Origin: an uncultured bacterium
GTDB lineage: Bacteria > Bacillota > Clostridia > Lachnospirales > Lachnospiraceae
Length of the DNA stretch: 64,000 nt
Assembly (NCBI GenBank): GCA_947177425.1
Contig: CAMWUN010000009.1
Location: 14,254 to 78,253 of the forward strand
Reading direction: 5' to 3'
Under the pieces are notes generated by a model. That model worked only from the letters and a program-made list of their open reading frames with translations. It did not search any database and was not told the DNA's origin. The translations under genes were made by a program, and so were the position numbers. Shown in pieces: positions 26,006 through 46,907 of the stretch (the stretch's first letter is position 1; every line of letters begins with the position of its first letter).

Positions 26006-26032
26006 GGTTTACATAAATTTATTATGTAAACC
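26006..26032. other. dif-like palindromic site (candidate chromosome dimer resolution site)
   Basis: GGTTTACATAA-ATTTA-TTATGTAAACC. The right arm matches 10/11 of the B. subtilis dif right arm TTATGTAAACT, and the site lies in the strand-switch zone. The spacer is 5 bp rather than the canonical 6. Confidence 0.5.
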
Positions 26033-26338
26033 TTTGCGTTTCTGCCTTGAGGTATATTTTGAACTGTGCAATGGGGATGGGGTTGCCGCACTGGCAGCCT
26101 CCCTAAAAAATTCATCTTTATCAACATAGTCCACTGTGCTATTATATTTTGTAGTGTATCTGGTATATTTTTCAGAAGTTTGAGGAGGCTTTGATTCTGC
26201 CATCCTGCTTTTTAAATACACATTTCTAAAACTGTCTACAGTATTTGTCCTCTTCCTTTTTTGCTTTTTATATTTCAAAAAAGTATAGCCATTAATAATA
26301 ATTACAACTACAACAATAAATACGATTAAAGTTTTCAT
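26009..26338 (-). CDS. Hypothetical small membrane-anchored protein
   Basis: 109 aa with an N-terminal hydrophobic helix followed by a basic stretch; AAGGA RBS. Confidence 0.6.
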   Translation of the reverse strand: MKTLIVFIVVVVIIINGYTFLKYKKQKRKRTNTVDSFRNVYLKSRMAESKPPQTSEKYTRYTTKYNSTVDYVDKDEFFREAASAATPSPLHSSKYTSRQKRKGLHNKFM

Positions 26339-26376
26339 TATATATCCTTCCTTAAAAACGGAATTACCTTATGAAT

Positions 26377-26413
26377 AACAAACGCTGTCACACTTCACGA
26401 GTCAGCTTATTAT
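26377..26413. repeat. Single copy of the ~37-bp intergenic repeat
   Basis: AACAAACGCTGTCACACTTCACGAGTCAGCTTATTAT. Confidence 0.8.
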
Positions 26414-26437
26414 AATCAATTTGCTTTGTTTGCAAAA

Positions 26438-26884
26438 CTACAACTCATCTGAATCCAGAATGACCGTAAAAGGCCCATTGTTAATAAGGGATACCTCCAT
26501 TTGCGCACCAAAAACACCATGGGCAACATGTGGAATTTCATCAGAACATTTTTTTATAATATATTCATATATTTTTTCTGCAAGTTCCGGGTTTCCGGCA
26601 TTTATGAAGGAAGGCCTGTTTCCTTTCCGGCAGTCTGCATATAAGGTAAATTGAGAAATAATTAACAGTTCCCCGTCTATGTTTTTGAGACTTAAGTTTG
26701 TCTTTCCATTCTCATCTGGAAAAATTCTTAAATTAATTAACTTGCGAATCATTTTATCAGCAATTTCGTATGTATCTATATTGCTGATGCCTGTCAGTAC
26801 CACAAACCCATTTTTAATTTCGCCAACGGTTTTCCCTTCTACACAAACTCCGGCCTCATCTACTCTCTGAATAACAAATCTCAT
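26438..26884 (-). CDS. dtd: D-aminoacyl-tRNA deacylase
   Basis: MRFVIQRV, SQFTL, GNRPSF and NNGPFT motifs. Confidence 0.96.
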   Translation of the reverse strand: MRFVIQRVDEAGVCVEGKTVGEIKNGFVVLTGISNIDTYEIADKMIRKLINLRIFPDENGKTNLSLKNIDGELLIISQFTLYADCRKGNRPSFINAGNPELAEKIYEYIIKKCSDEIPHVAHGVFGAQMEVSLINNGPFTVILDSDEL

Positions 26885-26889
26885 AGCAT

Positions 26890-28218: not shown

Positions 28219-28429
28219 TATTTCATTGAAAAATTTTCAGGGAACCCCAAAAACTCTTCCGGCCTCCTTTTCTGATTATAGTCTTTAATCACGGAAATTA
28301 ATTTTCAAAATCCCTGACCGGGGTTTTGGAAATTGATTTCCGCGGTCTTTATTAGTATAACATTTTTTTTTTTAGGATACTATGGTATAATTGTAAAATA
28401 TGTTTGAACTTATTTAAGCAGGAGGAATT

Positions 28430-29158
28430 ATGACATTACAGAAAGTACTTAGCTATATCCGGCGTGCAGCCGATGATTACCATATGATAGAATCAGGCGA
28501 TAAGATTGCCATCGGCATTTCCGGCGGTAAGGACAGCCTGACACTTCTCTATGGTCTTCACGGTCTTATGCGGTTTTATCCAAATCCATTTACTATTCAT
28601 GCGGTTACGGTTGATTTGGGGTTCCATAATCTTGATTTAACTGGAATACAGGAATTATGCAGTAAGCTTGAGATTCCCTATACAATTGTTAAAACAGACA
28701 TAGCCAATATAATATTTCAACAGCGTAAAGAAAGCAATCCCTGTTCTCTCTGTGCCAAAATGAGAAAAGGCGCCCTAAATGAAGCTATAAAAAAAGCAGG
28801 CTGTAACAAGGTAGCTTATGCGCACCACAAAGATGATGTAGTGGAAACCATGCTGATGTCCCTTATTTTTGAAGGAAGGTTCCACACCTTTAATCCGGTT
28901 ACATATTTAGACCGTATGGATTTAACAGTAATCAGGCCGCTTATGTATATGAATGAGTCAGATGTGATTGGATTCGTAAATAAATTCCAGATACCTGTAG
29001 TGAAAAGCCCCTGCCCTGCTGACGGCCATACGAAACGGGAATATATCAAAAACCTCTTACAGAAACTGAATCAGGAAAATCCCGGCGTAAAAGAGAGAAT
29101 GTTTACCGCCATACAAAACGGCAGGATGGAAGGATGGAGTTATTATGGAAAACAGTAA
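28430..29158 (+). CDS. ttcA: TtcA-family tRNA thiolation protein (PP-loop)
   Basis: SGGKDS, PCSLCAKMRKG, AHHKDD and IRPL motifs. Confidence 0.85.
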   Translation: MTLQKVLSYIRRAADDYHMIESGDKIAIGISGGKDSLTLLYGLHGLMRFYPNPFTIHAVTVDLGFHNLDLTGIQELCSKLEIPYTIVKTDIANIIFQQRKESNPCSLCAKMRKGALNEAIKKAGCNKVAYAHHKDDVVETMLMSLIFEGRFHTFNPVTYLDRMDLTVIRPLMYMNESDVIGFVNKFQIPVVKSPCPADGHTKREYIKNLLQKLNQENPGVKERMFTAIQNGRMEGWSYYGKQ

Positions 29159-30197
29159 AAATTATCATGATGAACAAAATAATTTAAACACCTTAAAGAT
29201 GCGGGAAGTACTTGCTGCCCTGCCCTCTTTCTGCAAGCAGTTTTTCAGGGGGATTCAGGAATACACCTCATCAAGGACAAGGCTTGCCTATGCCTATGAC
29301 CTGCGGGTGTTCTTTGAGTTCCTCCATGCAAATAACAGTGTCTGTGCTAAAATGGAAATTGTGGAGTTCCCATTGTCCATTCTGGACCAGATTACCAGAG
29401 AGGATATTGAGGAATATATGGACTATATTACTTATTATATAAAGGACGGCAGGGAATATGCCAATAACGAGAGAGGTAAAAAGAGAAAACTCTCTGCGCT
29501 GAAAAGCTTTTATAATTACTATTTCTGTGCAGAACTTATTAAAACCAATCCGGCAGCACTGGTGCCGCTCCCCAAACAGCATGAAAAGGAAATTATCCGG
29601 CTGGATGCAGACGAAGTGGCAATTCTGCTGGATCAGGTTGAAGAAGGGGAAAAACTTACCAAGTGCCAGCTAAAATATCATTCCAAAACCAAAATCCGCG
29701 ATATAGCGCTTCTCACTCTTCTACTGGGGACAGGCATACGTGTATCAGAATGTGTAGGACTAGATATCAGCGATGTGGATTTTAAAAACAACGGAATAAA
29801 AATAAGAAGAAAAGGCGGTTATGAAACAGTGGTATATTTTGGAGAGGAGGTTTCAGACGCACTTCACGATTATCTGGAAAAAAGACATCACATTATTCCG
29901 CTGGAAGGTCATGAAAACGCACTTTTCCTATCCATTCAGAACCGCCGTATCACCGTACGCGCGGTGGAGAATCTTGTAAAAAAATATACAGCTAACGTAA
30001 CGGGACTTAAAAAAATTACTCCGCATAAGCTTAGAAGCACCTATGGGACAACTCTGTATCAGGAAACCGGCGATATCTATCTGGTAGCCGATGTATTAGG
30101 GCATAAAGATGTAAATACAACCAGAAAACATTATGCTGCAATCGAGGACAACCGCCGCAGGAAAGCAGCTAAAGTGGTACGGCTGCGTGAAAAGTAA
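29145..30197 (+). CDS. Chromosomal tyrosine recombinase, Xer family (long, XerS-like N-terminus)
   Basis: 350 aa with intact catalytic residues (TGIRVSE, RRKGG, HKLR, LGH, HYA). Overlaps the ttcA stop, and no mobile-element context is visible. Confidence 0.85.
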   Translation: MENSKNYHDEQNNLNTLKMREVLAALPSFCKQFFRGIQEYTSSRTRLAYAYDLRVFFEFLHANNSVCAKMEIVEFPLSILDQITREDIEEYMDYITYYIKDGREYANNERGKKRKLSALKSFYNYYFCAELIKTNPAALVPLPKQHEKEIIRLDADEVAILLDQVEEGEKLTKCQLKYHSKTKIRDIALLTLLLGTGIRVSECVGLDISDVDFKNNGIKIRRKGGYETVVYFGEEVSDALHDYLEKRHHIIPLEGHENALFLSIQNRRITVRAVENLVKKYTANVTGLKKITPHKLRSTYGTTLYQETGDIYLVADVLGHKDVNTTRKHYAAIEDNRRRKAAKVVRLREK

Positions 30198-30214
30198 GTC
30201 GCCTTCTTCCAATA

Positions 30215-30275
30215 CCCTTAAGTTAAGATGTGTGTGGAGCGCACAGCAACTCATACAACATTTTTAACTTAAGGG
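30215..30275. terminator. Long hairpin between convergent xer and LysM genes
   Basis: CCCTTAAGTTAA ... TTAACTTAAGGG 12-bp perfect arms with imperfect extension. Confidence 0.55.
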
Positions 30276-30278
30276 CAT

Positions 30279-30665
30279 TCATCCATTATCTGCATCCATA
30301 GCAGTCCCAGAACCATAATAAGGAAGAATAAGGTATTGCCCAGCCACAATCTTATGATCAGAGAGGGAATTCAAACGCATAACTTCCTTTATATAGTCCC
30401 TGCTGTCCTCATATTCACCACTGCCTCCATACTCACTGGCATAATCCCAGAGAGTATCTCCATTCTGCACTACGATACTCTTATAATATTTATACAAAAC
30501 CGCCTCGGAATTACTCTGTGCTTTGGCTCTGAAACTGAAAAATATCAGAGAAAAACCTATAGCCAGCAATGTAGTCATAAGATACATGCGTATATTATGG
30601 CGAAGCTGACGTCTCCTTCTAATTCGATTATTTGCAATTCTACGTTCACTTATCCGGGAATCCAT
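30279..30665 (-). CDS. LysM-domain membrane protein, YneA-like SOS cell-division inhibitor
   Basis: TM helix followed by a LysM motif (VQNGDTLWDYA...I..VMRLNSL..HKIVAGQYLILP); divergent from lexA as in the Bacillus yneA/lexA layout. Confidence 0.8.
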   Translation of the reverse strand: MDSRISERRIANNRIRRRRQLRHNIRMYLMTTLLAIGFSLIFFSFRAKAQSNSEAVLYKYYKSIVVQNGDTLWDYASEYGGSGEYEDSRDYIKEVMRLNSLSDHKIVAGQYLILPYYGSGTAMDADNG

Positions 30666-30691
30666 TCTGAACACCTCCATGATATATTATA

Positions 30692-30801
30692 CGAACAAAT
30701 GTTACGAACAATTGTTTGTATAAGTGAATTATATCGAACAAACATTCTTATGTCAATACATTTGCGGAAAAAATCGAACAAATATTTGGAATATACGTTT
30801 G
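30692..30801. promoter_or_regulatory. Cluster of LexA (Cheo) box-like operators
   Basis: Matches to CGAAC-N4-GTTCG: CGAACAAATGTTAC (30692), CGAACAATTGTTTG (30705), CGAACAAACATTCT (30735), CGAACAAATATTTG (30775), GGAATATACGTTTG (30788). Confidence 0.75.
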
Positions 30802-30904
30802 TGTTTTCCTGTTTTGTGTGATATAATATAAAAGGAACAGAATAAGCCATTATTCAGCGGATAGTGGCTTATAACATAATTAACCAGGTAAAAGGAGGAT
30901 ATTC

Positions 30905-31519
30905 ATGGGATACGGGAAAATTAGCAGTAAGCAGCAGGAAATACTAGATTATATTAAAGAAGAAATTTTAAAGCGGGGATATCCGCCTGCTGTCCGGGAA
31001 ATTTGCGAGGCCGTTCATTTAAAGTCAACCTCTTCTGTCCATTCCCATCTTGAAACACTTGAGAAAAACGGCTATATCCGCCGTGACCCTACCAAACCAA
31101 GGGCAATAGAGATATGCGACGATAATTTCCAGATGGTCCGCACAGAGATGGTCAGCCTTCCGGTAATCGGTCAGGTTGCCGCAGGACTGCCTATTCTGGC
31201 AGAGGAAAATATTGAAAGCTATTTCCCTGTCCCGGCAGAGATGGTTCCCCACGGAGAATCTTTTATCTTAAAGGTTAAGGGGGATTCTATGATAAATGCA
31301 GGGATACTAAATGGCGACCGGATTTTTGTCAATGCCTGTAATTCAGCCAGGAATGGGGATATGGTGGTGGCCCTTATTGATGATTCCGCTACAGTCAAAA
31401 CCTTCTACCGGGAAGACGGGCATGTACGCCTTCAGCCTGAAAATGATACGATGGACCCTATTATTGTAGATGACTGCCAGATTCTCGGAACAGTTTTCGG
31501 GGTATTCAGACTTTTCTGA
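30905..31519 (+). CDS. lexA: SOS transcriptional repressor LexA
   Basis: GYPPAVREI HTH, VAAG cleavage site, VKGDSM (Ser) and ATVK (Lys). Confidence 0.97.
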   Translation: MGYGKISSKQQEILDYIKEEILKRGYPPAVREICEAVHLKSTSSVHSHLETLEKNGYIRRDPTKPRAIEICDDNFQMVRTEMVSLPVIGQVAAGLPILAEENIESYFPVPAEMVPHGESFILKVKGDSMINAGILNGDRIFVNACNSARNGDMVVALIDDSATVKTFYREDGHVRLQPENDTMDPIIVDDCQILGTVFGVFRLF

Positions 31520-36239: not shown

Positions 36240-37493
36240 TTATTGGATTAAGGAATAGTTGCCGTTTACAATTTCCATAGCCTTAGGCGCTTTGTTGACT
36301 GCACCGTCGGAATCCCATGACATTGCTTCGCCTGTAAGGCCGTCTACTGTAATTTCAACCATAGAGCCTTTAAGCTTCTCGCAGATATCAGAAGCGCTTT
36401 CATCTGCTGTTGCACCGCTCTTTTCAAGGGCTGCCTTAAGGATATATACGGCATCATATGCATCAGCAGCAAACTGGTTAGGCGTATCGCCATAAGCATC
36501 CTGATATGCGCTTACGAAAGATTTCGTTGCATCGTCTTCTGCATCTGCTGCGAAAGGTGTAAGGAGCATAACGCCTTCTGCCAGGGCTGTGTCAAAGTTT
36601 TCTACATTAAGAATACCGTCAAGGCCGTCGCATCCGAAGAACTTAGGTGCATATCCCATTCCGTTTGCCTGTGTCAGGATAAGGGATGCCTCTGTGTAGT
36701 AAATAGGCAGGAAAATAAGTTCTGCCCCTGCATCTTTTGCTTTCTGTAGCTGTACAGAAAAGTCTGTCTTGTTGTCAGCGGTAAAAGCTTCTGCTGAAAC
36801 AATTTCAAAAGGCTGGTTGGCAGCTTCCTGTGCAAACTTCTCATAGATGCCTGAAGAATATACATCAGAACTGTCATAAATAACTGCAACCTTTTCAGCA
36901 ACTGCGTTTGTTCCAATGTACTGGGCAGCGCCCACACCCTGGTTAGGGTCTGTAAAGCATACCTGGAAGACATTGTCATTGTCCTTAAGGATATCTACAG
37001 ATGAACCTGAAGGGGTAAGCTGGAACAGGTTGTCATTTGCAGACTCCGCTGCCACCGCGATACAGCATCCGCTGGTGGTGGTTCCCACTAACATCTGCAT
37101 GCCCCAGTCCTTTAAGGTATTGTATGCATTGACAGATTTTTCATTGTCACATTCATCATCCTGGAAGTTGTACTCAATCTGGTACCCGTTGATGCCTCCT
37201 GCTGCATTGATTTCTTTTACTGCAAGGTCAGCGCCGTTCTGGACTGCAATGCCGTAAACTGCTGCACCTCCTGTGGAAGGGCCGATTGCTCCGATTTTAA
37301 ATGAAGCGCCTGAACCTCCTGCATTTTCAGTTCCGTCTGTGCTCTCTGCTGCTTCAGTTCCGGATTCTGTGCTGGCTGCTTCCTGGGTATCTGAGCCCTG
37401 CTGTGCAGCATCGCTGCCGCCACATGCTGAAAGCATTGTCGCTGTCATTGCCGCTGCAGCTAAAAGACTCACTGCTTTTTTGAATTTCTTCAT
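36240..37493 (-). CDS. livK: Branched-chain amino acid ABC transporter substrate-binding lipoprotein
   Basis: Lipobox LSAC; GADLAVKEINAAGGING and AADAYDAV (Leu/Ile/Val-binding family). Confidence 0.88.
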   Translation of the reverse strand: MKKFKKAVSLLAAAAMTATMLSACGGSDAAQQGSDTQEAASTESGTEAAESTDGTENAGGSGASFKIGAIGPSTGGAAVYGIAVQNGADLAVKEINAAGGINGYQIEYNFQDDECDNEKSVNAYNTLKDWGMQMLVGTTTSGCCIAVAAESANDNLFQLTPSGSSVDILKDNDNVFQVCFTDPNQGVGAAQYIGTNAVAEKVAVIYDSSDVYSSGIYEKFAQEAANQPFEIVSAEAFTADNKTDFSVQLQKAKDAGAELIFLPIYYTEASLILTQANGMGYAPKFFGCDGLDGILNVENFDTALAEGVMLLTPFAADAEDDATKSFVSAYQDAYGDTPNQFAADAYDAVYILKAALEKSGATADESASDICEKLKGSMVEITVDGLTGEAMSWDSDGAVNKAPKAMEIVNGNYSLIQ

Positions 37494-37590: not shown

Positions 37591-37602
37591 TATTTATGCA
37601 AA
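37591..37602. repeat. Putative attL core
   Basis: TATTTATGCAAA, identical to 46173-46184. Confidence 0.65.
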
Positions 37603-37742
37603 TACAATACATTATATTGAGTCAATGTTAATATTTTGCTGTCATTAGCTTTTTAATCCGCATAAAGCCCGGGTCTATAGTACATAACACCATAAACCGA
37701 CCTTTTGTCTTATCCTGTCTTAATCTTCGTTCTGATAAGCAT

Positions 37743-37778
37743 ATTGGAGTATAAATTGGGGTACAGATTGGGGTATGC
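37743..37778. repeat. Putative integrase arm-type sites (left), 3 x 12-bp period
   Basis: ATTGGAGTATAA / ATTGGGGTACAG / ATTGGGGTATGC. Confidence 0.7.
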
Positions 37779-38257
37779 TTATTTACTTAAAATTGCCAAA
37801 CTACCAATATGAGAATGTCCAGAAGTGTTCCCGCCGGTTTAATGTCATTACCTCTAATTCTGCTGTATCCACTTTAGCCTGTTTCAATCCGATTTATTCA
37901 TATTTCCCCCTCTGAAGACGCAAAAGCTCTATTTCTTTTTTGCGTCTGTTAACTCTTAAACTCCTGTACTATCTGCTAAACTGCGACTGTTGTACTGTCC
38001 TACTTTCTGGTATGGCGGATGCTTTTCTTTTTCCAGTAATTATGCGGTTTTTGGCAGTTCTTGCTATTCTGGCAAGCTCCTTAAATGTTATTAATTTAAC
38101 GTCTTCTTAAAACATCATTTTTGTACACCGTCCTGTCACGCGCACGCAAACACTGAAAAAAAAATCTTATAGCTAGGCAGCTTATGGGCCTCGGAAGCAC
38201 CGCATAGAGGTTATCTTTTTTGACAGTACCTTTTTGGAGTTTAAGCCCGCATTATAA

Positions 38258-38294
38258 AAAGCAGAGGCTATATATATATTCCAACCTCTGCTTT
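38258..38294 (-). terminator. Hairpin downstream of integrase
   Basis: AAAGCAGAGG ... CCTCTGCTTT 10-bp arms. Confidence 0.55.
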
Positions 38295-38317
38295 ACCTCT
38301 TTCCGTATGCCTGCTGC

Positions 38318-39445
38318 CTATAATGCTATATTGATACTGTTCATTTCTTCCTGCTTTGTATTGGGTAGTACATGGGAATATAAATCCATTGTCATTGACA
38401 GGCTGGCATGTCCAAGGATGGTCTTCAATACCTGGGCGCTCCCTCCCTGCTCTATGTACCTTGTCGCAAAGGTATCTCTTAATGCATGGGCAGAAAAGTG
38501 TTCTATCCTTTCCCCTCCTACTGTATTTATCCTTTTAAGGGTATCGCTGATTGCTTTATTTACGCTGGCATCGTATACCATGCCACCATAAGCCCCTTCA
38601 AAAACTGCCTGCGACAATGGTATCACATTGCCATGGACAAGGCTTAGTTTTTCCTTCTGGCTCTTTAAACCCCTTTTTATGGAATCATTCAACGGAATAT
38701 CCCTTATACTGGTCTTACTCTTAGGTGTGTCTGTAATATATTCACCTGTGGCGGCCCTACTGATTGTCTTGGTCACGTGGATCACATTGTTAATATAATC
38801 TATGTCACTCCATGTAAGGGCAGTTGCTTCCCCCACCCTCATACCGGTACATAGTAGCAGCGCTATCAGTTCGTATAGCCATTCCTGTTTCACATTCTCC
38901 ATAAACAGTTTCTGTTCATCCAGTGTTAATGCCCTGTGATAGGTTTCAGTTGCGGCCATGCCCTCCAACTTCAATGCCTTGACGCCTGCTGCTGGGCTCT
39001 TGATTATTACCCCGTCCACTACTGCATCATTAAAAATACTCTTAAGTTGTACAATCGTTATATTAACCGTTGTGGCCTTTAGTTTCTGTGCAAGTTCCTT
39101 TTGAAGACGTACGATTTCCCTTTTCTCTATATCCACCATCTTCCGTGAACCCATTGCTGGACTGATATGCTTCCGGTACCTGCACTCTATGTTAAGGGCT
39201 GTATTTCCCTTTATGGTCCCCTCCCTCGCGGCTTTCCACTCTTCATAATACTGGTCTAAGGTTATATTGCGGCTGCTTACATATGATCCAGATCTAATCT
39301 TTTCCCGTAGTTCTGCATCTTTGGCCTTACATTCTTTTAATGTATCAGCATACACACTGTAGCGCTTCCCGTTAATTGTGAACCGTGATTCGTACTTGCC
39401 ATCTTTCCTTTGCCGGTATCCGGCTGACAAACTCCTTTTAGCCAT
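38318..39445 (-). CDS. int: Tyrosine recombinase/integrase (phage/Tn916-like with N-terminal arm-binding domain)
   Basis: N-terminal RQRKDGKYESRF; catalytic TGMRVGE, TPKS, HALR, LGH and LYSH are intact; AAGGAG RBS. Confidence 0.93.
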   Translation of the reverse strand: MAKRSLSAGYRQRKDGKYESRFTINGKRYSVYADTLKECKAKDAELREKIRSGSYVSSRNITLDQYYEEWKAAREGTIKGNTALNIECRYRKHISPAMGSRKMVDIEKREIVRLQKELAQKLKATTVNITIVQLKSIFNDAVVDGVIIKSPAAGVKALKLEGMAATETYHRALTLDEQKLFMENVKQEWLYELIALLLCTGMRVGEATALTWSDIDYINNVIHVTKTISRAATGEYITDTPKSKTSIRDIPLNDSIKRGLKSQKEKLSLVHGNVIPLSQAVFEGAYGGMVYDASVNKAISDTLKRINTVGGERIEHFSAHALRDTFATRYIEQGGSAQVLKTILGHASLSMTMDLYSHVLPNTKQEEMNSINIAL

Positions 39446-39486
39446 ATCGCAATAACTCCTTTCTTTAGCATGAGGCAGCAGGCTTA

Positions 39487-40002
39487 TTAAACCTGCTTAT
39501 CCCCTTTCTTTTCTGCGGTCTCTCTGGCCGCTTTGGCGGCTGCGCGCTTGGCTTTCCTCTCCGCTCGCCTGCGTTCTTCCTCTGCCTCCCGCTCATCCAG
39601 TCTGCGGAGGCGTGCTTCTGTGTATCTGTCAATAAGCTGTCCGCCCCTGCTCTCATTATGGGCTTTTATGATATGCAAATAATTATGCTCTTGTACCAAT
39701 TTTAGGAAGCCGGTCTTATAAAAGTATTCAGTGAATGGACGTTCATCATTACACGCACCCCAGCCACTGTAATCCCTGCCAATTTCAAAATATGCCCTTT
39801 TCTCCCTACATTCATTAATAAATGCCGCTGCCCATTCTCCAAAAAGCTCTACTGCCCTGTAAAAAGGGACTGCATCATCACTCCCGATTAAGACAGCCTC
39901 CCCCTCAAAAAGTTCCACTGCTGCCGCTTTGTTTAACACTTCGTCTATCAATTTTCCATTTCCTTTCTTTACATGAGGCAGCAGGCATGATATACTGCCC
40001 AC
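39487..40002 (-). CDS. Hypothetical protein with charged helical C-terminus (true start probably near 39950-39960)
   Basis: ORF track; a Shine-Dalgarno-like AAAGAAAGGA at 39961-39970 suggests the first ~14 codons are not translated. Confidence 0.55.
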   Translation of the reverse strand: MGSISCLLPHVKKGNGKLIDEVLNKAAAVELFEGEAVLIGSDDAVPFYRAVELFGEWAAAFINECREKRAYFEIGRDYSGWGACNDERPFTEYFYKTGFLKLVQEHNYLHIIKAHNESRGGQLIDRYTEARLRRLDEREAEEERRRAERKAKRAAAKAARETAEKKGDKQV

Positions 40003-40086
40003 ATACCCCTAATTTACTTGTTACCGGGTTACCGCCCTTATCAATGCGTCACCATTGGTAAGGGCATTTTTATGTCTTTTTTGCTT

Positions 40087-40518
40087 TCATGCTGTAATGC
40101 TTACCAATGCACCAAACGACTCTTTATAGGCATATCCTCCGATGATCCTTGTTTCGGCTTTCAGTTCCATGCCACTATCAAGTACCGCTGCAATGCTCTG
40201 GGCTATGCCCTTTGGCAGATATCCTATATGTGCATACCCAATACTTTTTATGCCGATCACCACAGCTACCGCATATTTGTCAAATGCGTTTGCCCTGTCG
40301 CGTCTAAGGTAAGTGGTAAACTCTTCCGGCTTCCTCCCTGCTATGAACTGCAGTAACTCCTGTCTGTTATCAAAAGTAACGCCCTGGGCCTTTACGGACA
40401 TACCTTCCTTGATTCTTTTCCATGCCGTCTTAAATGCCTTGGAAAGGGAGTACCCAAGTTTGTGTAGCTGGTTCGCTATCGTTGTCACCGCCTTTCTTAT
40501 CTTTGTGATTTGTTCCAT
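40087..40518 (-). CDS. Stand-alone HIRAN-domain protein
   Basis: GVTFDNRQ..L...LRRDRANAFDKYAVAV...IGYLPK..A..IA..LD pattern is characteristic of HIRAN. Confidence 0.78.
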   Translation of the reverse strand: MEQITKIRKAVTTIANQLHKLGYSLSKAFKTAWKRIKEGMSVKAQGVTFDNRQELLQFIAGRKPEEFTTYLRRDRANAFDKYAVAVVIGIKSIGYAHIGYLPKGIAQSIAAVLDSGMELKAETRIIGGYAYKESFGALVSITA

Positions 40519-40680
40519 ATCCTGTACCTCTTTCTTTCATTTATGTTTATATTATAAATGTTTATATTTAAATTGCCAATGCATTAATTTAAACTTTTTT
40601 ATTTACTTTTTTCACGTACCTATTGTATTTTTAAACACTTTCATTTATAATATAGATAGATTGAAAGAGAGGTGACCACT

Positions 40681-40896
40681 TTGGCAGTATCAGAACAAAT
40701 CAAAATCCTATGTGTAAAATTGAATATCAGCGTTTCAGAATTGGCACGTTTATGTAATACCAGCCCGCAAGCATTTAGCCAGAAAATGAAACGTGAGGGA
40801 TTTACTCCTGCCGATTTAAAGAAAGTAGCAAAAGCGGCAGGGTGCAAATATGAAGGCTCGTTTATTCTACCTGATGGCGATAGGGTAACAGATTAA
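40681..40896 (+). CDS. Small XRE-family helix-turn-helix protein (TTG start)
   Basis: IKILCVKLNISVSELARLCNTSPQAFSQKM HTH; GAGAGGTG RBS; divergent from the HIRAN gene. Confidence 0.75.
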   Translation: MAVSEQIKILCVKLNISVSELARLCNTSPQAFSQKMKREGFTPADLKKVAKAAGCKYEGSFILPDGDRVTD

Positions 40897-41037
40897 GTGA
40901 AATAACAATGAAAGAGCATGGGCGAAAGCATGAACTCTTTTGTTATTCGGGCCATTGCGAAACCATTGAACATGACAACCAAAAAGAATAGCCACTACCA
41001 TAAACGAATACAATAACCATGAAAGGAAGTGCACATT

Positions 41038-41259
41038 ATGAGCAACCGTGAATTAGCAAAACAACTAATAGACCAGATACCCGAAAGCAAGATGTATTAT
41101 ATCGTCTCATACCTGCAGGGAGCAGCAGTCCCGGAAGAAACGCCCAACGCGGAAACTCTGGAAGCAATGGCCGAGGTACAGGATATGATTGAAAGCGGTA
41201 CCGGGGAACATTTCAGCGGCCCGACTTCTGATTTCCTTGCCATGCTGGCGGAGGGATAA
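41038..41259 (+). CDS. Putative antitoxin with DinJ/RelB-like C-terminus
   Basis: PNAETLEAMAE...F...SDFL resembles the DinJ toxin-binding tail; ends 3 bp before the toxin gene. Confidence 0.72.
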   Translation: MSNRELAKQLIDQIPESKMYYIVSYLQGAAVPEETPNAETLEAMAEVQDMIESGTGEHFSGPTSDFLAMLAEG

Positions 41260-41262
41260 GCC

Positions 41263-41535
41263 ATGTTGAGATTAAATACCTCCACCAGATTTAAACGGGA
41301 TTTTAAGCTGTGCCTGAAACGTGGGTATGACATACAGCTTCTTGAGGCTGTCATTGACACCCTGCGTATTCCCAGGCCACTTCCGGCAAAGAACCGGGAC
41401 CATAAGCTGTCTGGCAACCATTCGGGAGAGAAGGAATGTCATATCGCCCCGGACTGGCTTCTGATTTACCGTATCAGTGATGATGAATTATATCTTGTCC
41501 GTACAGGTACACATGCCGATCTGCTCAATATGTAA
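41263..41535 (+). CDS. yafQ: YafQ-family (RelE superfamily) mRNA interferase toxin
   Basis: FKRDFK, RDHKLSG, ECHIAPDWLLIY and RTGTHADL motifs. Confidence 0.9.
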   Translation: MLRLNTSTRFKRDFKLCLKRGYDIQLLEAVIDTLRIPRPLPAKNRDHKLSGNHSGEKECHIAPDWLLIYRISDDELYLVRTGTHADLLNM

Positions 41536-41866
41536 TAATCATTGTACCGGAGTTTCCGACTTCAAACCGGGAAACTGACACCAATATTGTTGTGAGAGGC
41601 AGCAGGCGTCACATTTACTCTTCCCCAATTATGGGGGTATGTATTGTGCCCTGCTGCCGTCCTGCATGATTTGGGGACGAAGTCTATGACGAAAGATCCA
41701 GTGCGTACGATTCAGTTTTGCGGGTCACACGGATGCAGAGGGCAAACTGCCCTGACTATCCAAAGCTGGAAAAGCATTTGATATCTTAAAGCCCACCCTA
41801 CAGGGAGTTCTGACTATTTATGGACGGGTTCCCTCTGTCCTCCCCGTAATGTTCTGCCAAAAGCTG

Positions 41867-42003
41867 TTGTGGCCTGCTGCCAGATATGCTATATTAGACG
41901 GGAAAGGGAACGCCACGGAAGCGGCCTGTCCCTGAAATATATTTCAACGTCACCCTCTTACGAGGCTGGCCGTCACTATTCGCAGTAGTGGCGGCTGTTT
42001 TTT
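41867..42003 (+). ncRNA. Candidate ~100-nt small RNA (promoter + terminator, no ORF)
   Basis: TTGTGG(41867)-N17-TATATT(41890) with extended TG; terminator GCCGTCACTA-N7-TAGTGGCGGC-TGTTTTTT at 41969-42003. Confidence 0.4.
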
Positions 42004-42168
42004 CGTCCTCCTTTACACATCGTGCATCTCCTTACAGAGCATTTGTAATAATTAATTGATTTTTAAAGCCAATTTCGCATTTTACCCCCTTACCCTTATA
42101 AAGTTCTACCCTACATCGTTTTAAGCCCGATTTGCTCATTTTCAAGCCCTGCTATAAGGAATTTCAAA

Positions 42169-42621
42169 CTACTTCCGCTTAAATCTCTCTGCCATCGCTT
42201 TACGCTGTTCCTCCGAAAGCCGTTTTGCCGGGCTAATCTTTATCCACGCTACCGGAATATGGGCGCACATGCTGCCGTCTGTATTTTCTGCAACAATCTG
42301 ACATTCCTCCGGGTGCCCTGCTGCCAGTTTCTTTATGCGGCTCTTATACCGCTCTTGTGAGAAAGAAACAGTTGCCCTCTCGCTGTTCTTGCTGAATTCA
42401 ATCACGTTTTCTATATTGCCGGTTATTTCCGGCAGCAGGATTTCACCCACTGTTACGCCAATGGCATCTGCTATTCTTTCCGCTGCGCTCTTGGATGCGT
42501 CACAACCTTTCATAATCCACTGGAAAGACTTTTGATAAAGCCCCGTCCTGCTGCATATTGTTTCTTCTGTCAGTTTCCTCTTCACCATGGTTTCCATAAT
42601 CTTTTTGCTGTTCAGTCTCAT
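42169..42621 (-). CDS. Hypothetical protein: N-terminal XRE-like HTH fused to a phage-type domain
   Basis: N-terminal ..LTEETICSRTGL......IM...ASKSAAERIADAIGVTVGEIL; C-terminal ENVIEF...RATVSFSQ..YKSRIKKLA..HPEEC. Confidence 0.65.
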   Translation of the reverse strand: MRLNSKKIMETMVKRKLTEETICSRTGLYQKSFQWIMKGCDASKSAAERIADAIGVTVGEILLPEITGNIENVIEFSKNSERATVSFSQERYKSRIKKLAAGHPEECQIVAENTDGSMCAHIPVAWIKISPAKRLSEEQRKAMAERFKRK

Positions 42622-43099
42622 ATTGTACCTTTCCTTCCCCGACTTACCGCCGTTACCTTAACACCTGTCTGTACTGTACTTTCCATGTCTGCCCCTGCCA
42701 ACGACCGTTTTAAATCTTAGCATTTCTTAGCATCCCTGAACCGGCTTTTCTCCACAATTTCCCCTGCCTCCGCATGCCTCAAACACTGATACAGACGGGA
42801 AATATTTATCATTGCATGCCAGCCGCTATTGTATGCAACGTTGCGTTTCAAAAATGCAACGTTGCAATCAGGACAGGGCATAAAAGAACTGTATTCCCGG
42901 ACGTTTCCCGCATGGCCCCCTGTTTTAACCTTAGCATTTTAGTATCACCAAACCGGATTTTCCCCACTGTCTTACCTGCCTCCACATGCTTCAGACACTG
43001 ATGCGGGCGGGGGTGCCATTACCATGCCGCCCCTATTGACTGAATGTTGTACAACATTGCAACCGGGAAAGCCCTTTAAAGGACTATAGCCCCCACTGA

Positions 43100-43215
43100 T
43101 ACGGTTCAACGCCATCATTTCCCCACTTGTGGCCCTGCCGGGGTTGCTGTCCGGGTGATACATTTTAGACAGCGCGCGGTAAAACTTTTTCAGGATGGCC
43201 TTTTCAGCTTCATCA
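43100..43215 (-). pseudogene. J-domain (DnaJ-like HPD) remnant
   Basis: EKAILKKFYRALSKMYHPDSNPG...EMMALN lies within ORF 42972-43283; the flanking translation looks non-native. Confidence 0.55.
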
Positions 43216-43245
43216 TCGCCTCTGTGGCAGCAGGGCATACCAGAT

Positions 43246-44186
43246 TCATTTCCCCGCAGTGCTGCTGCCCCATGGTGAACCATTTATCTTTTCAAGAAGC
43301 TTCTGCTTTTCCTGCCGCATGATACTCCTTCTTACAGGTTCTTCCGGGAGCTTTACAAAAAACGTTGCACACTCTATCCTGTCTGTTATCCTGTCATTTA
43401 TTTTCAGATGTTCTATGGGTATATTGCTGGTATAGACTGTCGGGAGCCGGTTCACATACCTTTCATTTACCAGCCTGTACAGCACCGTGTCTATCCATTC
43501 TTTTGCCGACATCTGCACGCCGATATCATCCAGTACCAGAAGTCCGGTCCCATAGAGCGCCTTTACATCTTCGTCTTTCCCGTCGAATCCTTTTTTGGTC
43601 ATTTCCAGGAAATCCAGTATATTTACAAACTTTACACTTCCTGTGTATCTTTTGGCGATCTCATTCAGCAGGCAGCAGGACAGCATGGTTTTGCCGCTCC
43701 CCTTTGTGCCGGAATATATGTACAGCCCCATCCCACTATCCCGAAACTCCTGATATCTGGTAATGTAACTGTTGACAAGATTTTTTCGGATGTGGTGTCA
43801 GCCTTATACCTGTCCCATCTGAAATCCCTTCCGTCCAGACCGATAAATTCAAATGGCATCATTGCCCTTATCCTTCTGTACTCCGCCTCACCACTGGTGA
43901 CACCTGCCGGAGGTAAAAATATCTCATACCCTTTCCTGTCTTCCAGAAGGTACCCTTTTTCGGTTACAGAAAGGCATATATCATTAAGTTCATCGTTTGT
44001 CAGGTTCTCCCATCTGGGATAGTCCTTAAGGGCTTTCCGCATGTATATGCGCCTTTCGCTCAATTCTTCCAGATTCATTTCCATGGCCCGGTATGTAAGG
44101 CCGTCTTTTTTCAGCAGCCTGAACCCTGCAAGCTCTTTTCCGCTTAACCCGGCCGTTGCACCGGTGCAACTTCTTTCTTCCATCAT
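43246..44186 (-). pseudogene. DnaC/IstB-like AAA+ helicase loader, split by a 1-nt frameshift at 43781-43786
   Basis: The upstream ORF runs into the downstream frame (NLVNSYITRYQEFRDSGMGLYIYSGTKGSGKT, Walker B LLVLDDIG) if one A is added to an A6 run. Confidence 0.78.
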
Positions 44187-44194
44187 CCTGTCTC

Positions 44195-45013
44195 CTAAAA
44201 TGGCCCGTCCGTGTCTGAAACACTATTTCCACCAAGCCCCTTATACATCTCCTTATACTCCGGCGGGTACTCATATTCCTCCTGCCTCTGATCCTGCTGC
44301 CGCCCGGATGCTTTATACGCGCCGCCCCTGTCCTGTTCCCTTGAAAGCCAGTTATTGATAAAGCGGTCTATCCCCCTTCTGGTTTTCCTGCGTACAGGGT
44401 TTGAGTCAAGCCATGCGGCCATCTTATACAGTTCCTGCTTAATGTCCACCGCCGGATAGGCTCCGCCCCATTTTTCAATCCGCTGTAATGGCACATCATA
44501 GTCCGTACCGTCTATCAGAGGCAGCAGTATCCCACTCAAATCTGCCGCCGGCTGTTCTGGCTCCGGGCATATAGTATTTATACTATACTTATCTATACTA
44601 TACTTACCTATACTAACCTTATCTGGGTTTCCCGCAGGTATGTCGCTTGGTATACCATCCGGTATGCCAGTGGGAAACAACTCATATTTCCCGTTATTAC
44701 TGCACAACATCCCTTTTTCCCTTAAAAATCTGGTTTCCTTATATCTGTCAGTCCTAATGCTGTTATTCTGCTTCCAGTGGCATATAACAATTATCCCGTT
44801 TTCAAAGGGTATCACATATCCCTTTGAAAACAGTATCTTCATATCGTCACTGGAACAATTTGCAATCTTGACAATCCGCCTTGGACTTGAAACGAATCCA
44901 TCATCGTCTGCCCTCATTCCCAAATGGAAGTACAGGCATTGCGCTGAAATAGGCATGTCCAAAAAATTATCCGTATCCACTACATCAAGACTGAACATCC
45001 TTCTGTTTGCCAT
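44195..45013 (-). CDS. Phage-type replication initiator (replisome organiser)
   Basis: MANRRMFSLDVVDTDNFLDMP.SAQCLYFHLGMRADDDGFV N-terminus, typical of Firmicutes phage replisome organisers; internal tandem repeats; precedes the DnaC-like gene. Confidence 0.82.
   Translation of the reverse strand: MANRRMFSLDVVDTDNFLDMPISAQCLYFHLGMRADDDGFVSSPRRIVKIANCSSDDMKILFSKGYVIPFENGIIVICHWKQNNSIRTDRYKETRFLREKGMLCSNNGKYELFPTGIPDGIPSDIPAGNPDKVSIGKYSIDKYSINTICPEPEQPAADLSGILLPLIDGTDYDVPLQRIEKWGGAYPAVDIKQELYKMAAWLDSNPVRRKTRRGIDRFINNWLSREQDRGGAYKASGRQQDQRQEEYEYPPEYKEMYKGLGGNSVSDTDGPF
44577..44621. repeat. Three tandem 15-bp AT-rich repeats inside rep (putative origin)
   Basis: TTTATACTATACTTA / TCTATACTATACTTA / CCTATACTAACCTTA. 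Confidence 0.7.
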
Positions 45014-45029
45014 CTGAACTCCTTTCACA

Positions 45030-45251
45030 TCACAGCGCATTTTTCTTCTGTACTTCATTGCCTGCCAGTCCGTCAAGATATCGCTCTATCCTGTCCACCT
45101 TGTAAAGAACCCTTTTCCCTATCTGGATCCTTGCACCTGCTGCCTCGCCTATTTTTATGGCGGTAGGTCTTCCACAGTCCAGTATCTTAGCGAGTGTTTC
45201 CGCGTTAACTGATACTTTGTTACTGGCTTCCATTGTCCTGGTTTTCCTCAT
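45030..45251 (-). CDS. Small excisionase/Cro-like DNA-binding protein
   Basis: VNAETLAKILDCGRPTAIKI...ARIQIGKRVLYKVDRIERYL winged-HTH pattern; divergent from the repressor. Confidence 0.68.
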   Translation of the reverse strand: MRKTRTMEASNKVSVNAETLAKILDCGRPTAIKIGEAAGARIQIGKRVLYKVDRIERYLDGLAGNEVQKKNAL

Positions 45252-45313
45252 ACTTTGAAATCTCCTTTACATGTTTTGTCTTTATCATTTACTTGTACTG
45301 ATATGTATGATAT

Positions 45314-45396
45314 TATTGTTGCGTAACGTGATTATATCGCAACAATAGTTAGAAGTAAATATTTGTTGCTTATATTTTTATTGATGCAACAAATAT
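45314..45396. promoter_or_regulatory. Paired inverted-repeat operators in the repressor/xis switch
   Basis: TATTGTTGCG-N14-CGCAACAATA (45314-45347) and ATATTTGTTGC-N16-GCAACAAATAT (45359-45396). Confidence 0.65.
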
Positions 45397-45417
45397 ATTC
45401 GCAAGGAGGGATTTCTT

Positions 45418-46086
45418 ATGTTGAGTGAAACAAAAATAAATGAAAATATGCAAATATTTAAAGAGCGGCTAAAGGCTTTACGCGGTAAGAGAAGTCTTCA
45501 AGAGGTTGCCCATGACTTGGGTATATCAAGGGCAACTTTAGGATATTATGAAAACGGAGATAGGAAACCGGATGTTGAAGTATTATTAAAAATTGCATCA
45601 TACTACAATGTTTCCTGTGATTACCTATTAGGTCTAACCGACTGCTTAACACCTGACATTGACAATAGGGCAATTTCGGAAAAAACTGGATTAAGTGAAG
45701 AAGCTGTAGAATACTTATGCTTTTGCAATGATATCGCACATACTGAAACGGATAGTAAGTATGGAAATTATTTCATGCATACAGTTAATTTACTTTTATT
45801 TCCAGAATGTAGATTAGTAGACCAAATATCCGGCTATCTAAACTTCAATTTTGATTTTGCGGCAGAAGTACAGTATAATGAATCCGAACACAATTATGAA
45901 ATATCCTCCAATACCATTTCCCTTGATGCTTTTGCGATTTTTGATAAAAATGGTGCCATGTCAATTCGAGTTAACAGTGAACTTATTAATAAAGCACTAT
46001 TGGTTAACATCCAAAATGAACTTGTGCAAATGAGAAAGCAAATTCTGGAAAGTAAATTATCAAATTGCGGTTTGGATAAAGAATAA
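45418..46086 (+). CDS. XRE-family repressor (HTH + uncharacterised C-terminal domain)
   Basis: FKERLKALRG..SLQEVAHDLGISRATLGYYENGDRKPD....LKIASYYNVSCDYLLG. Confidence 0.88.
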   Translation: MLSETKINENMQIFKERLKALRGKRSLQEVAHDLGISRATLGYYENGDRKPDVEVLLKIASYYNVSCDYLLGLTDCLTPDIDNRAISEKTGLSEEAVEYLCFCNDIAHTETDSKYGNYFMHTVNLLLFPECRLVDQISGYLNFNFDFAAEVQYNESEHNYEISSNTISLDAFAIFDKNGAMSIRVNSELINKALLVNIQNELVQMRKQILESKLSNCGLDKE

Positions 46087-46093
46087 AATTACT

Positions 46094-46117
46094 ATTGGGG
46101 TAAAAATTGGGGTAGAA
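46094..46117. repeat. Putative integrase arm-type sites (right), 2 x 12-bp period
   Basis: ATTGGGGTAAAA / ATTGGGGTAGAA, in the same orientation as the left set. Confidence 0.7.
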
Positions 46118-46172
46118 ACCATTTACCGTAGGCGGAAAGCCTTATAAATAGGGCACTTTTCTCAAAAAAATG

Positions 46173-46184
46173 TATTTATGCAAA
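46173..46184. repeat. Putative attR core
   Basis: TATTTATGCAAA, identical to 37591-37602. Confidence 0.65.
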
Positions 46185-46272
46185 AAGTATATCTTTTATG
46201 TTTTCGGAGAGAATAAAACTGACGATCTTAAAACATAGAGATCTCAAAATGATTTTAATGGAGGTGCCTGAA

Positions 46273-46491
46273 ATGAATAATAAATATTTAGACTGTATTG
46301 CATTGACAATTGCCATTATCGGTGCAGTCAACTGGGGATTAATCGGATTTTTTTCAATTGATCTTGTATCATTTATTTTTGGTAACATGTCCTGGATATC
46401 CAGAATCATTTATGCGGTTGTCGGAGTCAGCGGTCTTTATCTGATTACTTTTTATATGTACACCGGCGGCAGCGCACATGCAAAAGAATAA
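46273..46491 (+). CDS. DUF378 family small membrane protein
   Basis: L.IIGAVNWGLIGFF..DLV..IFG......RIIY.VVG.SGLY pattern; GGAGG RBS. Confidence 0.87.
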   Translation: MNNKYLDCIALTIAIIGAVNWGLIGFFSIDLVSFIFGNMSWISRIIYAVVGVSGLYLITFYMYTGGSAHAKE

Positions 46492-46505
46492 ACAGTTTTA
46501 AAATG

Positions 46506-46538
46506 CCGGACGCCCTGTTGAAAACACAGGGCGTCTGG
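46506..46538. terminator. Bidirectional hairpin between convergent genes
   Basis: CCGGACGCCCTGT-N7-ACAGGGCGTCTGG. Confidence 0.65.
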
Positions 46539-46907
46539 TTATTTCAATTCTTCTATATCCATGCTTCTTCCATCCCGCCAGATCCTTTCCAGATCGTAAA
46601 AAAGACGGTTCTCCTGATCAAAAATATGGACAATAATATCGCCAAAATCAAGCAGCACCCAATTGGCATTTTGATATCCTTCAATTTGCTTTACAGGATA
46701 TCCGGCCTTACCAAGCTTCTCTTCCACTGCATCTGAAAGGGTCTGTATCTGGCTCCGGTTGCTTCCACTTGCTATAATAAAGTAATCGGCAAGCACGCTG
46801 ACCTGGCTGATATCAATGACTCTTATATCCTCCGCTTTTTTATCCTCCATCGCTTCTATTGCCAGTCTGGCCATTTCCTTCACTTTTTCCAAAGAAAAAT
46901 TTCCCAT
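46539..46907 (-). CDS. rsfS: Ribosome silencing factor
   Basis: DKKAEDI, ADYFIIASG, WVLLDFGDIIVHIF and FYDLERIW motifs. Confidence 0.96.
   Translation of the reverse strand: MGNFSLEKVKEMARLAIEAMEDKKAEDIRVIDISQVSVLADYFIIASGSNRSQIQTLSDAVEEKLGKAGYPVKQIEGYQNANWVLLDFGDIIVHIFDQENRLFYDLERIWRDGRSMDIEELK

Follow-up and report, generated by a model that had tools for sequence, protein, structure and literature searches.

The locus described here raises the question of why a short DNA word should recur in exact form, and in both orientations, throughout one small mobile element while the chromosome around it contains no copy, and what could keep such a word in place. The element is an integrated island of about 8.6 kb, referred to below as W, in a 64-kb window (64,000 nucleotides, the whole stretch of DNA that was analysed) of a contig from an uncultured Lachnospiraceae bacterium. 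An earlier note on this DNA had pointed to a repeated 9-mer, GGCAGCAGG, and had taken it for a selected cis-signal specific to the element. Comparison of W with related loci, which are designated by L-numbers, led to the conclusion that a large mosaic pool of integrative, self-replicating, satellite-like islands of ~8-11 kb in Lachnospiraceae has the word, GGCAGCAG(G), as its signature, and that W is a slightly decayed member of this pool. As to function, we regard it as quite possible, without calling it probable, that this is a number-dependent word of the class of uptake sequences and Chi, which acts as a universal short-homology linker for module exchange and is frequent through the preferential spread of the modules carrying it.

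An exact count over the window gave twelve copies of GGCAGCAGG, six on each strand and all at the positions reported in the earlier note (Table 1). They all lie within 38310-45144, which bears out that note's impression, gained by eye, that the other ~55 kb hold no exact copy. Dinucleotide-preserving shuffles of the 64-kb window, used as the background for this count, contained 0.50 copies on average and 3 at most. The four one-mismatch copies named previously are real as well (39917, GGCAGCAGT; 42547, TGCAGCAGG; 43261, GGCAGCAGC; 44520, GGCAGCAGT), and three more were found in the island at 38985, 42268 and 44278. When only the 8-mer GGCAGCAG is counted the island holds 15 copies (7 on the plus and 8 on the minus strand) and the other 55.4 kb none, the copies beyond the twelve being those at 39917 (minus strand, followed by T), 43261 (minus strand, followed by C) and 44520 (plus strand, followed by T). 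GGCAGCAG is the commonest 8-mer of the island, and it is this 8-mer that is the unit under selection. In a logo of 396 distinct copies pooled over 81 loci the ninth position was G in about 60% of the copies, and there was no information outside the 8-mer except this ninth-position G. The flanks of the copies are unrelated and the copies are therefore not duplicated segments; a longer repeat as the true unit was rejected because the 396 copies have no flanking consensus. One-mismatch 8-mers are at the background level of the host, with 13 in the 8.6-kb island against 89 in the 55.4 kb of host DNA (equivalent to 13.8 per 8.6 kb), so the enrichment is restricted to the exact word. GGCAGCAG also matches in full a stretch of 16S rRNA that is universally conserved and serves as the target of the 341F/357 primers. 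As the upstream flank of the copies is not conserved, we consider this identity to be a coincidence.

To place W among its relatives we used its replisome organizer (the name given to the protein by NCBI), for which there are 4663 homologues, and fetched 80 reference-genome loci, each with an alignment to the W protein; the assemblies of the close relatives are those of Lachnospiraceae or Eubacteriales, which points to a Lachnospiraceae host. Among GC-containing 8-mers GGCAGCAG ranks first in about 25 of these 80 loci, with 6-24 copies in each, and the organizers of the word-rich loci are 45-61% identical to that of W. Scans of metagenomes and of IMG/VR added further rich loci (L210, L222-L224, L227, L229, L243, L252, L282, L300 and L345); an IMG/VR motif-pair scan returned mostly high-GC chance matches, among which L081, L148 and L153 alone were useful. 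The carriers are dozens of 8-11-kb islands from several Lachnospiraceae genera that encode an integrase, a repressor, replication genes and often a sigma factor. Word density in the rich islands is ~1-2 copies per kb. Around the organizer start (-1 to +6 kb) it is 1.0-1.6 copies per kb, and beyond this range 0.2-0.6. In each locus the copies fill the island and end at its borders, and the host flanks of the related loci are word-poor. What is kept is the number of copies per island (about 1.5-2 per kb) and not their positions. Other relatives carry variants of the word at similar density and dispersion, the set being made up of the one-letter changes TGCAGCAGG, GGGAGCAGG and GGCAGAGG: TGCAGCAG(G) is found in L010 and L014, GGGAGCAGG in L036, and GGCAGAGG in L038, L047, L205 (14 copies against 0.6 expected) and L304, and L044 mixes two of the variant words. 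Neither the 9-mer as a named signal nor a dispersed word in satellites was found in full-text literature searches, and a megablast of the island against phage and plasmid collections gave no match. In all, the word is family-wide and, as far as we could find, undescribed.

Several individual loci deserve mention. The Ruminococcus gnavus phage phiRgIBDN1, whose organizer is 55% identical to that of W, has 2 copies in 37 kb. In L153, a phage with a Mu-like head, seven of the eight copies lie in the 2.3-kb integrase and early region and one in ~10 kb of structural genes; its terS gene has no copy and its terL gene one. The densest coding cluster is found in a sigma-70-like gene (L003, 14217-15104; L005, 14967-15854), with 4-6 8-mers in 900 bp, and a non-coding stretch of L043 (19567-20096) holds seven copies together with repeated TGCAAAA..GTGCGCACAAAAAAAA units. 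In the capsid-and-scaffold island L040 (10230-13949) an unrelated dispersed 8-mer, GTGCCGGA, is present in 8 copies and replaces the GGCAGCAG family.

The copies are placed with no regard to gene structure. They lie within open reading frames (ORFs) in 82.5% of the cases, against a coding fraction of 84.5% (p=0.37), and non-coding DNA, 15.5% of the total, holds the remaining 17.5%; all three frames and both strands are used. Gene starts and stops are not enriched in copies, with a slight depletion at starts, and a gene-border signal was rejected on this ground. The spacing of the copies is near-exponential (median 448, mean 655), and close neighbours show neither hairpin logic nor a preference for inverted orientation, which led us to reject hairpin or terminator pairs. 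Promoter- and terminator-like matches in the region are at the level of shuffles: the copy at 39977, assigned previously to a promoter spacer, is indeed inside a promoter-like match (39968-39996), but such matches are no commoner than in shuffled sequence. Intergenic copies have a weak A-rich stretch at -14 to -9 upstream, and a subset lies 5-8 nt downstream of -10-like boxes. Coding copies are sense or antisense at 163:97 (63% versus 37%), and over all rich loci the orientation relative to the organizer gene is 158:88. The GC and AT skews of these genes are ~0.2 and the word is G- and A-rich, so that composition alone would favour sense far above 1.7 to 1; both orientations therefore seem to be wanted, and antisense, if anything, to be favoured.

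Conservation of the word can be followed at single sites. At the peptide G-I-L-L-P-L of the organizer, nine out of ten word-rich lineages code L-L-P as CTG CTG CC(N), the third base of the proline codon and the adjacent isoleucine and glycine codons varying freely, whereas the word-poor homologues use TTG CTT, TTA CTT or TTG CTA; the word is thus fixed where neighbouring synonymous sites vary. Six of the W copies are at the same positions in L201 and five in L202 (among the latter the copy at 38310, found in L202 at 7471). Alignable DNA of W and L202 is ~72% identical, and chance survival of a 9-mer would be ~5%. There is turnover too, as the one-mismatch AGCAGCAGG at 38985 appears from the coordinates of the integrase alignment to be the ortholog of an exact L202 copy at 6799. 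These comparisons show that the exact 8-mer is kept by selection at the DNA level. The claim of an element-specific, selected cis-signal is strongly supported, the word being absent from the flanking chromosome by exact k-mer count and kept, partly position by position, in homologous elements.

The evidence on what the word may do comes from the junctions between islands. In a first pass a copy lay no more than 10 nt from 15 out of 87 ends of homology blocks, random positions giving 3.5%, and after stricter filters and de-duplication 10 out of 64 ends were within 6 nt of a copy, against 3.1% expected (p=2.8e-5). The copy of W at 43226 has the left flank of the L201 copy at 3191 and the right flank of the L201 copy at 4138; relative to L201, 947 bp are lost and two ORFs are fused, with the crossover inside CTGCTGCCA. 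Homology of a cassette encoding a Uma2-family nuclease, common to L001, L030 and L202, starts exactly at GGCAGCAGGCG and ends exactly after CCTGCTGCC, the flanks in L030 being unrelated, and at either end of the cassette the word forms the basis of a 13-nt inverted repeat (GGCAGCAGGCRTAT ... ATAYGCCTGCTGCC). Elsewhere, three islands part directly after the word, which in one of them is cut mid-way, between GGCAG and AAAC. The integrase module of W is bracketed by the inverted copies at 38310 and 39474 (inverted repeat I14, 38306-38319 / 39473-39486), and in the comparison with the L202 integrase (75% identity) homology starts 10 nt from the copy at 39474 and ends exactly at 38310; the L153 integrase, ~25% identical, is bracketed by copies likewise. 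The word-free cargo block of W is also bracketed, by the copies at 39977 and 41598. Homology between islands is thus seen to begin and end exactly at copies, with the junctions of deletions, cassette replacements and integrase-module swaps inside the word, and the sequences directly display the word as a crossover point. The junctions follow no orientation rule (6 versus 4), and cassette-flanking copies are direct (L201) or inverted (Uma2, integrase), and for this pattern crossing-over within a short patch common to both partners is a better account than a polar mechanism such as that of Chi or a classical site-specific one of the attC type.

We therefore propose the following for the linker reading. 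The word would be the 9-13-nt exact patch in which recombination intermediates anneal and resolve; it would supply this patch because it is the only sequence common to otherwise unrelated modules. The enzymes may be annealing proteins of the Erf/Rad52 type, encoded in some islands and in co-resident phages, or the exchange may occur by template switching in replication. Modules that carry the word would be movable into any island that carries it, and modules and word would spread through the pool together; the word would be kept frequent and exact by molecular drive, as has been proposed for DNA uptake sequences. Lineages with different one-letter variants would then form exchange groups that are partly separate. 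Exact identity alone counts, as it must for base-pairing, the 13 one-mismatch words of the island being background. The word is missing from the recently acquired cargo of W (40003-41597) and from the repressor gene (24 of 25 word-rich loci have no copy there, L007 having one), and in L153 it is biased to the early region, which speaks for a property of exchangeable modules rather than of a whole packaged or protected molecule. Exactness, position independence, use of both orientations, variants and persistence in unrelated modules with no cis reader place it in the class of number-dependent signature words. That it is moreover a dedicated universal linker, a selected adapter splicing any module of the pool into any island, with the one-letter variants as exchange groups, is a tentative proposal which we put forward with greater reserve.

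Several points weigh against the linker reading. Drive or second-order selection would have to be strong enough to hold single copies in conserved genes, which is demanding, and any conserved word, if kept for another reason, could give rise to such junctions as a by-product. Only about six independent junction events are resolved, one of the three internal junctions between W and L201 is at a copy, and close relatives within the GGCAGAGG variant group are too few for a junction test. Erf-type annealing proteins are encoded in 10 of 44 rich and 14 of 102 poor loci, and no enzyme efficient on patches of 9-13 nt was identified in this analysis. The density and exactness of the word fit recognition by some enzyme equally well. 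Should the word be a dedicated universal linker, the linker sequences that the modular theory of phage evolution postulates would have their first concrete example, and a molecular drive like that of uptake sequences would be seen at work in a gene pool of mobile elements and not in a chromosome. As a recombination adapter it would give a mechanistic basis to the mosaicism of temperate elements, debated for decades. The word in any case marks a very common, undescribed family of small gut Lachnospiraceae islands and is sharper than a typical protein operator, and clusters of GGCAGCAG or its variants offer a cheap and specific marker for islands and exchange groups in metagenomes.

The features of the carrier are collected in Table 1. 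Judged from its genes, W is organised as a small phage-satellite-like island: a small integrated element with integrase, repressor and its own replication module, and no virion genes among its ORFs. The ATTGGGGTA repeats near its ends are likely arm-type integrase sites; in two other loci such repeats are directly followed by GGCAGCAGG. By Pfam the chromosomal flanks contain a gene for an ABC substrate-binding protein (36240-37493, minus strand) and DUF378 and RsfS genes (46198-46907), and a search for the empty integration site through the RsfS protein found none on record. The ~700 bp between the left repeat and the integrase stop (37591-38310) are without a long ORF or a copy of the word and gave no match to Rfam or tRNA; Rfam and tRNA/tmRNA scans of the whole window found nothing. 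The presence of a copy at the integrase stop, claimed before, was confirmed, and the sequence preceding the copy at 41873, AATATAGCA, is a 24-nt repeat of the integrase-stop sequence (direct repeat D5), the context AATATAGCAYATYT plus word recurring in other loci. A small hairpin (41622-41637) lies between the copies at 41598 and 41650. The YafQ toxin pair is found in L201 too, and a DnaJ-like remnant is encoded in the island. The loader gene is frameshifted near 43731-43780, its halves matching residues 1-135 and 153-313 of the intact 313-amino-acid (aa) L201 protein; the frameshift and the loss of 947 bp at 43226 suggest that W is a decaying copy. Next to the copy at 44293 is a decayed neighbour, GGCAGGAGG, at 44278. 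Two palindromic boxes, TGCAACGTTGCA, at 42834-42866, ~210-240 nt upstream of the 150-aa helix-turn-helix (HTH) gene, recur five times around the homologous gene of L037 (316-361 and 5691-5881) and look like a classical dimeric operator that is separate from the signature word. Elsewhere in the window, at ~24000-31000, a cumulative GC skew peak coincides with a switch in gene orientation and the GC content falls to 35-37% at 24-28 kb, a pattern resembling a replication terminus or else a second foreign insert, at a distance of 10-20 kb from the island.

Table 1. Copies of the word and other features of the island and its relatives (window coordinates unless a locus is named).
Feature	Position	Strand	Remark
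Integrated island, ~8.6 kb	37591..46199		boundaries inferred from direct repeats
Direct repeats TATTTATGCAAA	37591 and 46173		island ends
ATTGGGGTA repeats	37742-37775 and 46093-46114		just inside both island ends
GGCAGCAGG	38310..38318	-	overlaps integrase stop codon TAG (38318-38320); end of integrase module
Tyrosine integrase, Tn916-type N-terminal DNA-binding domain	38318..39445	-	Pfam PF00589, PF14659, PF02920
One-mismatch AGCAGCAGG	38985..38993	-	within integrase gene
GGCAGCAGG	39474..39482	+	29 nt upstream of integrase start
171-aa ORF			holds copies 39917 (inside) and 39977 (5' end)
8-mer (GGCAGCAGT)	39917..39925	-	within 171-aa ORF
GGCAGCAGG	39977..39985	+	5' end of 171-aa ORF; last before word-free cargo
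Cargo block without word	40003-41597		HIRAN, HTH_26, antitoxin-like ORF, YafQ toxin
YafQ-family toxin	41263-41535	+	76-aa ORF in antitoxin position upstream; pair spans 41029-41535
GGCAGCAGG	41598..41606	+	just 3' of YafQ toxin gene; kept in L201 at 6096
GGCAGCAGG	41650..41658	-	inverted partner of 41598, 43 nt apart; kept in L201 at 6044
GGCAGCAGG	41873..41881	-	intergenic; preceded by AATATAGCA
150-aa HTH ORF	42169-42621		
GGCAGCAGG	42317..42325	-	sense, within 150-aa HTH ORF
GGCAGCAGG	42431..42439	+	antisense, within 150-aa HTH ORF (peptide I-L-L-P)
GGCAGCAGG	43226..43234	+	deletion junction relative to L201
DnaC/IstB-like helicase loader	43246..44186	-	Pfam and PHROG matches; frameshift gives 173-aa and 161-aa ORFs
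8-mer (GGCAGCAGC)	43261..43269	-	3' end of DnaC-like gene; kept in L201 at 3155
GGCAGCAGG	43671..43679	+	antisense, DnaC-like gene (peptide S-C-C-L); kept in L201 (2746) and L202 (2186)
DnaD-like replisome organizer	44195..45013	-	PHROG 8489/5708
GGCAGCAGG	44293..44301	-	sense, near 3' end of replisome-organizer gene; kept in L201 and L202
8-mer (GGCAGCAGT)	44520..44528	+	antisense; codes conserved L-L-P of replisome organizer
73-aa DUF6462/xis-like HTH gene			contains copy 45136..45144
GGCAGCAGG	45136..45144	-	sense, 73-aa DUF6462/xis-like HTH gene; kept in L201 (1288) and L202 (724)
cI-like HTH_3 repressor	45418..46086	+	Pfam; divergent from lytic-type operon; no copy of word
Uma2-family nuclease cassette, 756 bp	L001 4754-5509; L030 5936-6691; L202 3757-4512		

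A reader of the word was sought among the proteins of the islands themselves. BLAST clustering and iterated HMM searches revealed no protein family universal to the rich loci, and the candidates for a binding site of an element protein, one of the functions suggested in the earlier note, do not account for the word: the cI-like repressors of W and L201 are 17% identical and the word is common to both (their lytic-side genes are nearly identical, with the xis-like HTH proteins at 89% identity), the DUF6462 xis-like HTH is encoded in 19 out of 30 word-rich loci and the HIRAN protein cluster in only 5 loci. When the genes of 44 rich and 102 poor loci were compared, a sigma-70-like gene (24 rich, 16 poor) and a Uma2-type nuclease gene (10 rich, 1 poor) stood out; W has neither, and both were rejected as cis readers since they are enriched yet not universal. 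The word accompanies three different replication modules, namely a DnaD-like organizer with a DnaC-like loader, an organizer with DnaB/primase, and a D5-like primase, and this speaks against the primase start site that had also been suggested. Equal word density is seen in L148, whose contig encodes a D5-like primase-helicase and lacks an organizer. Conversely, organizers 52-61% identical to that of W occur in word-poor elements and in phiRgIBDN1, and one genome harbours both the rich locus L043 and the poor locus L006 with a related organizer; a general host factor is therefore insufficient. In all, the word depends neither on reading frame or orientation nor on gene borders, and it is tied to no single protein that the islands encode.

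The main rival to the linker reading, although an unlikely one, is that a helper phage provides the reader in trans, for instance a small terminase, a nuclease, or a factor for replication or late genes. With its many copies the island would then capture this protein, for packaging or protection of its own or as a decoy that starves the helper, and the variants would track helper specificity. This rival is consistent with the lack of a universal island-encoded protein, with the occurrence of the word in small islands that have no virion genes or capsid and scaffold only, with the poverty in words of phiRgIBDN1 despite its related replication gene and of L006 next to the rich L043, and with number dependence, position and orientation independence and exactness, which fit enzyme-like recognition; some relatives even encode a Nu1-like small-terminase candidate. 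Yet no helper was identified and no phage with a functional word cluster was found, terS of L153 is devoid of the word and terL has one copy, and imprecise terminase cuts would not yield nucleotide-exact junctions. To our knowledge, moreover, satellites use a single pac or cos site. A dedicated helper-phage or host reader may act in addition to the linker function, and if there is one the word would be a handle for finding both protein and helper. Quite unlikely, in our view, are dispersed operators of a global silencing or regulatory protein, comparable to the stoperators of cluster A phages or the KorB sites of RK2. Such a protein would suit an asymmetric word which, within a temperate element, is scattered over the repressed genes (lytic, replication, integration) and missing from the one for the repressor, expressed in lysogeny; it would also suit the variants among relatives, reminiscent of stoperator consensus variants, and the location of some intergenic copies just downstream of -10-like boxes. 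Against it stand the divergence of the W and L201 repressors despite their common word and the lack of any other universal HTH protein, the absence of enrichment in intergenic DNA, promoters and starts, and the nearly word-free structural genes of L153. One-mismatch variants are not enriched at all, unlike those of protein operators, and 37% of the coding copies are antisense whereas stoperators are mainly intergenic and co-oriented (PMC3029335).

The remaining explanations carry little weight with us. A Chi-like signal that stimulates recombination and attenuates AddAB of the host, or some other helicase-nuclease, on island DNA in linear or rolling-circle form is very unlikely even though the word is short, exact, asymmetric, number-dependent and associated with recombination, and though its presence in both orientations would shield circular or permuted DNA whichever side the attack came from. 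The 55 kb of host chromosome have no copy, which tells against the Chi function towards host AddAB considered in the earlier note, the host flanks of the relatives are word-poor too, the junctions are without an orientation rule, and the phage of the same host family, phiRgIBDN1, is not enriched. Every Chi that we know of is frequent in the core genome of its host. A scan of 48 kb of host sequence for skewed words that could be the host Chi was uninformative. Boxes for a replication initiator (iterons or DnaA boxes), with those at the 3' end of the organizer gene as the origin cluster and the dispersed ones as titrating sites, are highly improbable as well. Many relatives do have 1-3 sense copies at this 3' end, as has W if 44278 is counted with 44293, and origins lie inside initiator genes in lambda O and Tuc2009; the equal density in L148, the association of the word with both DnaC-type and DnaB/primase-type partners, and the word-poor elements with closely related organizers argue against it. 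The stoperator-like array, Chi and initiator boxes each fail the tests made here. Action of the word in RNA, as an antitermination, processing or small-RNA seed site, is scarcely credible: 63% of the coding copies are sense and some lie at predicted transcript 5' ends, but 37% are antisense, an orientation that given the composition skew seems if anything favoured, leaders are not preferred, no Rfam family matches and close pairs are without hairpin logic. The RNA-level antitermination site of the earlier note is disfavoured by the same figures.

Among known systems, the carrier itself has clear counterparts. Firmicutes satellites of 7-20 kb, of the type of phage-inducible chromosomal islands (PICI-like; StCI of Streptococcus thermophilus), encode an integrase, regulators and replication proteins but have few structural genes or none (PMC13376191). 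This likeness in gene content concerns the carrier and not the word, and no dispersed signature word has been reported for these satellites. The stoperators of cluster A mycobacteriophages (L5 gp71, Bxb1 gp69) are 13-bp asymmetric sites, 24 in L5 and 34 in Bxb1, in which up to two deviations are allowed; they lie for the most part between genes, follow the direction of transcription and are matched to the immunity repressor (PMC3029335). The word resembles them in being asymmetric, dispersed in a temperate element and different in consensus between sub-lineages, but is 8-9 bp long, enriched in exact form only, 83% inside genes and in both orientations, and does not co-vary with the repressor. 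Chi is likewise short, exact, asymmetric, linked to recombination and number-dependent in effect, whereas it is over-represented and strand-skewed in the host core; here there is no over-representation in the core chromosome, the skew is weak (7:8 in W, 158:88 overall) and the junctions lie exactly inside the word, not to one side. Unlike iterons, which form one origin cluster served by one initiator family, the copies in W are spread over 6.8 kb. KOPS and SRS (FtsK/SpoIIIE) and the TRS/clt sites of Streptomyces TraB are G-rich 8-mers read by a DNA translocase, TRS being plasmid-specific. These are strongly polar or confined to one locus, whereas the word is dispersed and weakly polar, and the island ORFs contain no FtsK-like domain. 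Compared with integron attC sites, imperfect palindromes in direct orientation on both sides of each cassette that are served by a dedicated integrase, the word is a bare 8-9-mer without palindromic flanks, and the copies that flank cassettes are direct or inverted.

Two systems come closer. In the modular theory of phage evolution, reportedly set out by Susskind and Botstein 1978 and Botstein 1980, linker sequences are short sequences common to unrelated modules at which exchange takes place. The word is like them in that homology blocks begin and end at it, and differs in that linkers were placed between functional modules whereas most copies are inside genes (83% in ORFs). For no family of phages or satellites are we aware of a documented universal linker word of this kind. 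The nearest formal analogues are the uptake sequences, the DNA uptake sequences (DUS) of Neisseriaceae and the uptake signal sequences (USS) of Pasteurellaceae, whose traits, dialects and molecular drive are said to be described by Frye et al. 2013 and by Maughan, Wilson and Redfield 2010. Like the word, they are exact, 9-12 nt long and present about once per kb, in both orientations, in all frames and in intergenic DNA; their number appears to matter more than their position, lineages differ by one- or two-letter dialects, and molecular drive has been proposed for them. Uptake sequences fill the host chromosome and are read by the host competence machinery, whereas the word belongs to a mobile pool, the chromosome has no copy, and Pfam and PHROG annotation of the island reveals no candidate uptake receptor. 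Chi, uptake sequences, KOPS and stoperators have this in common, that each dispersed word revealed a DNA-handling machine.

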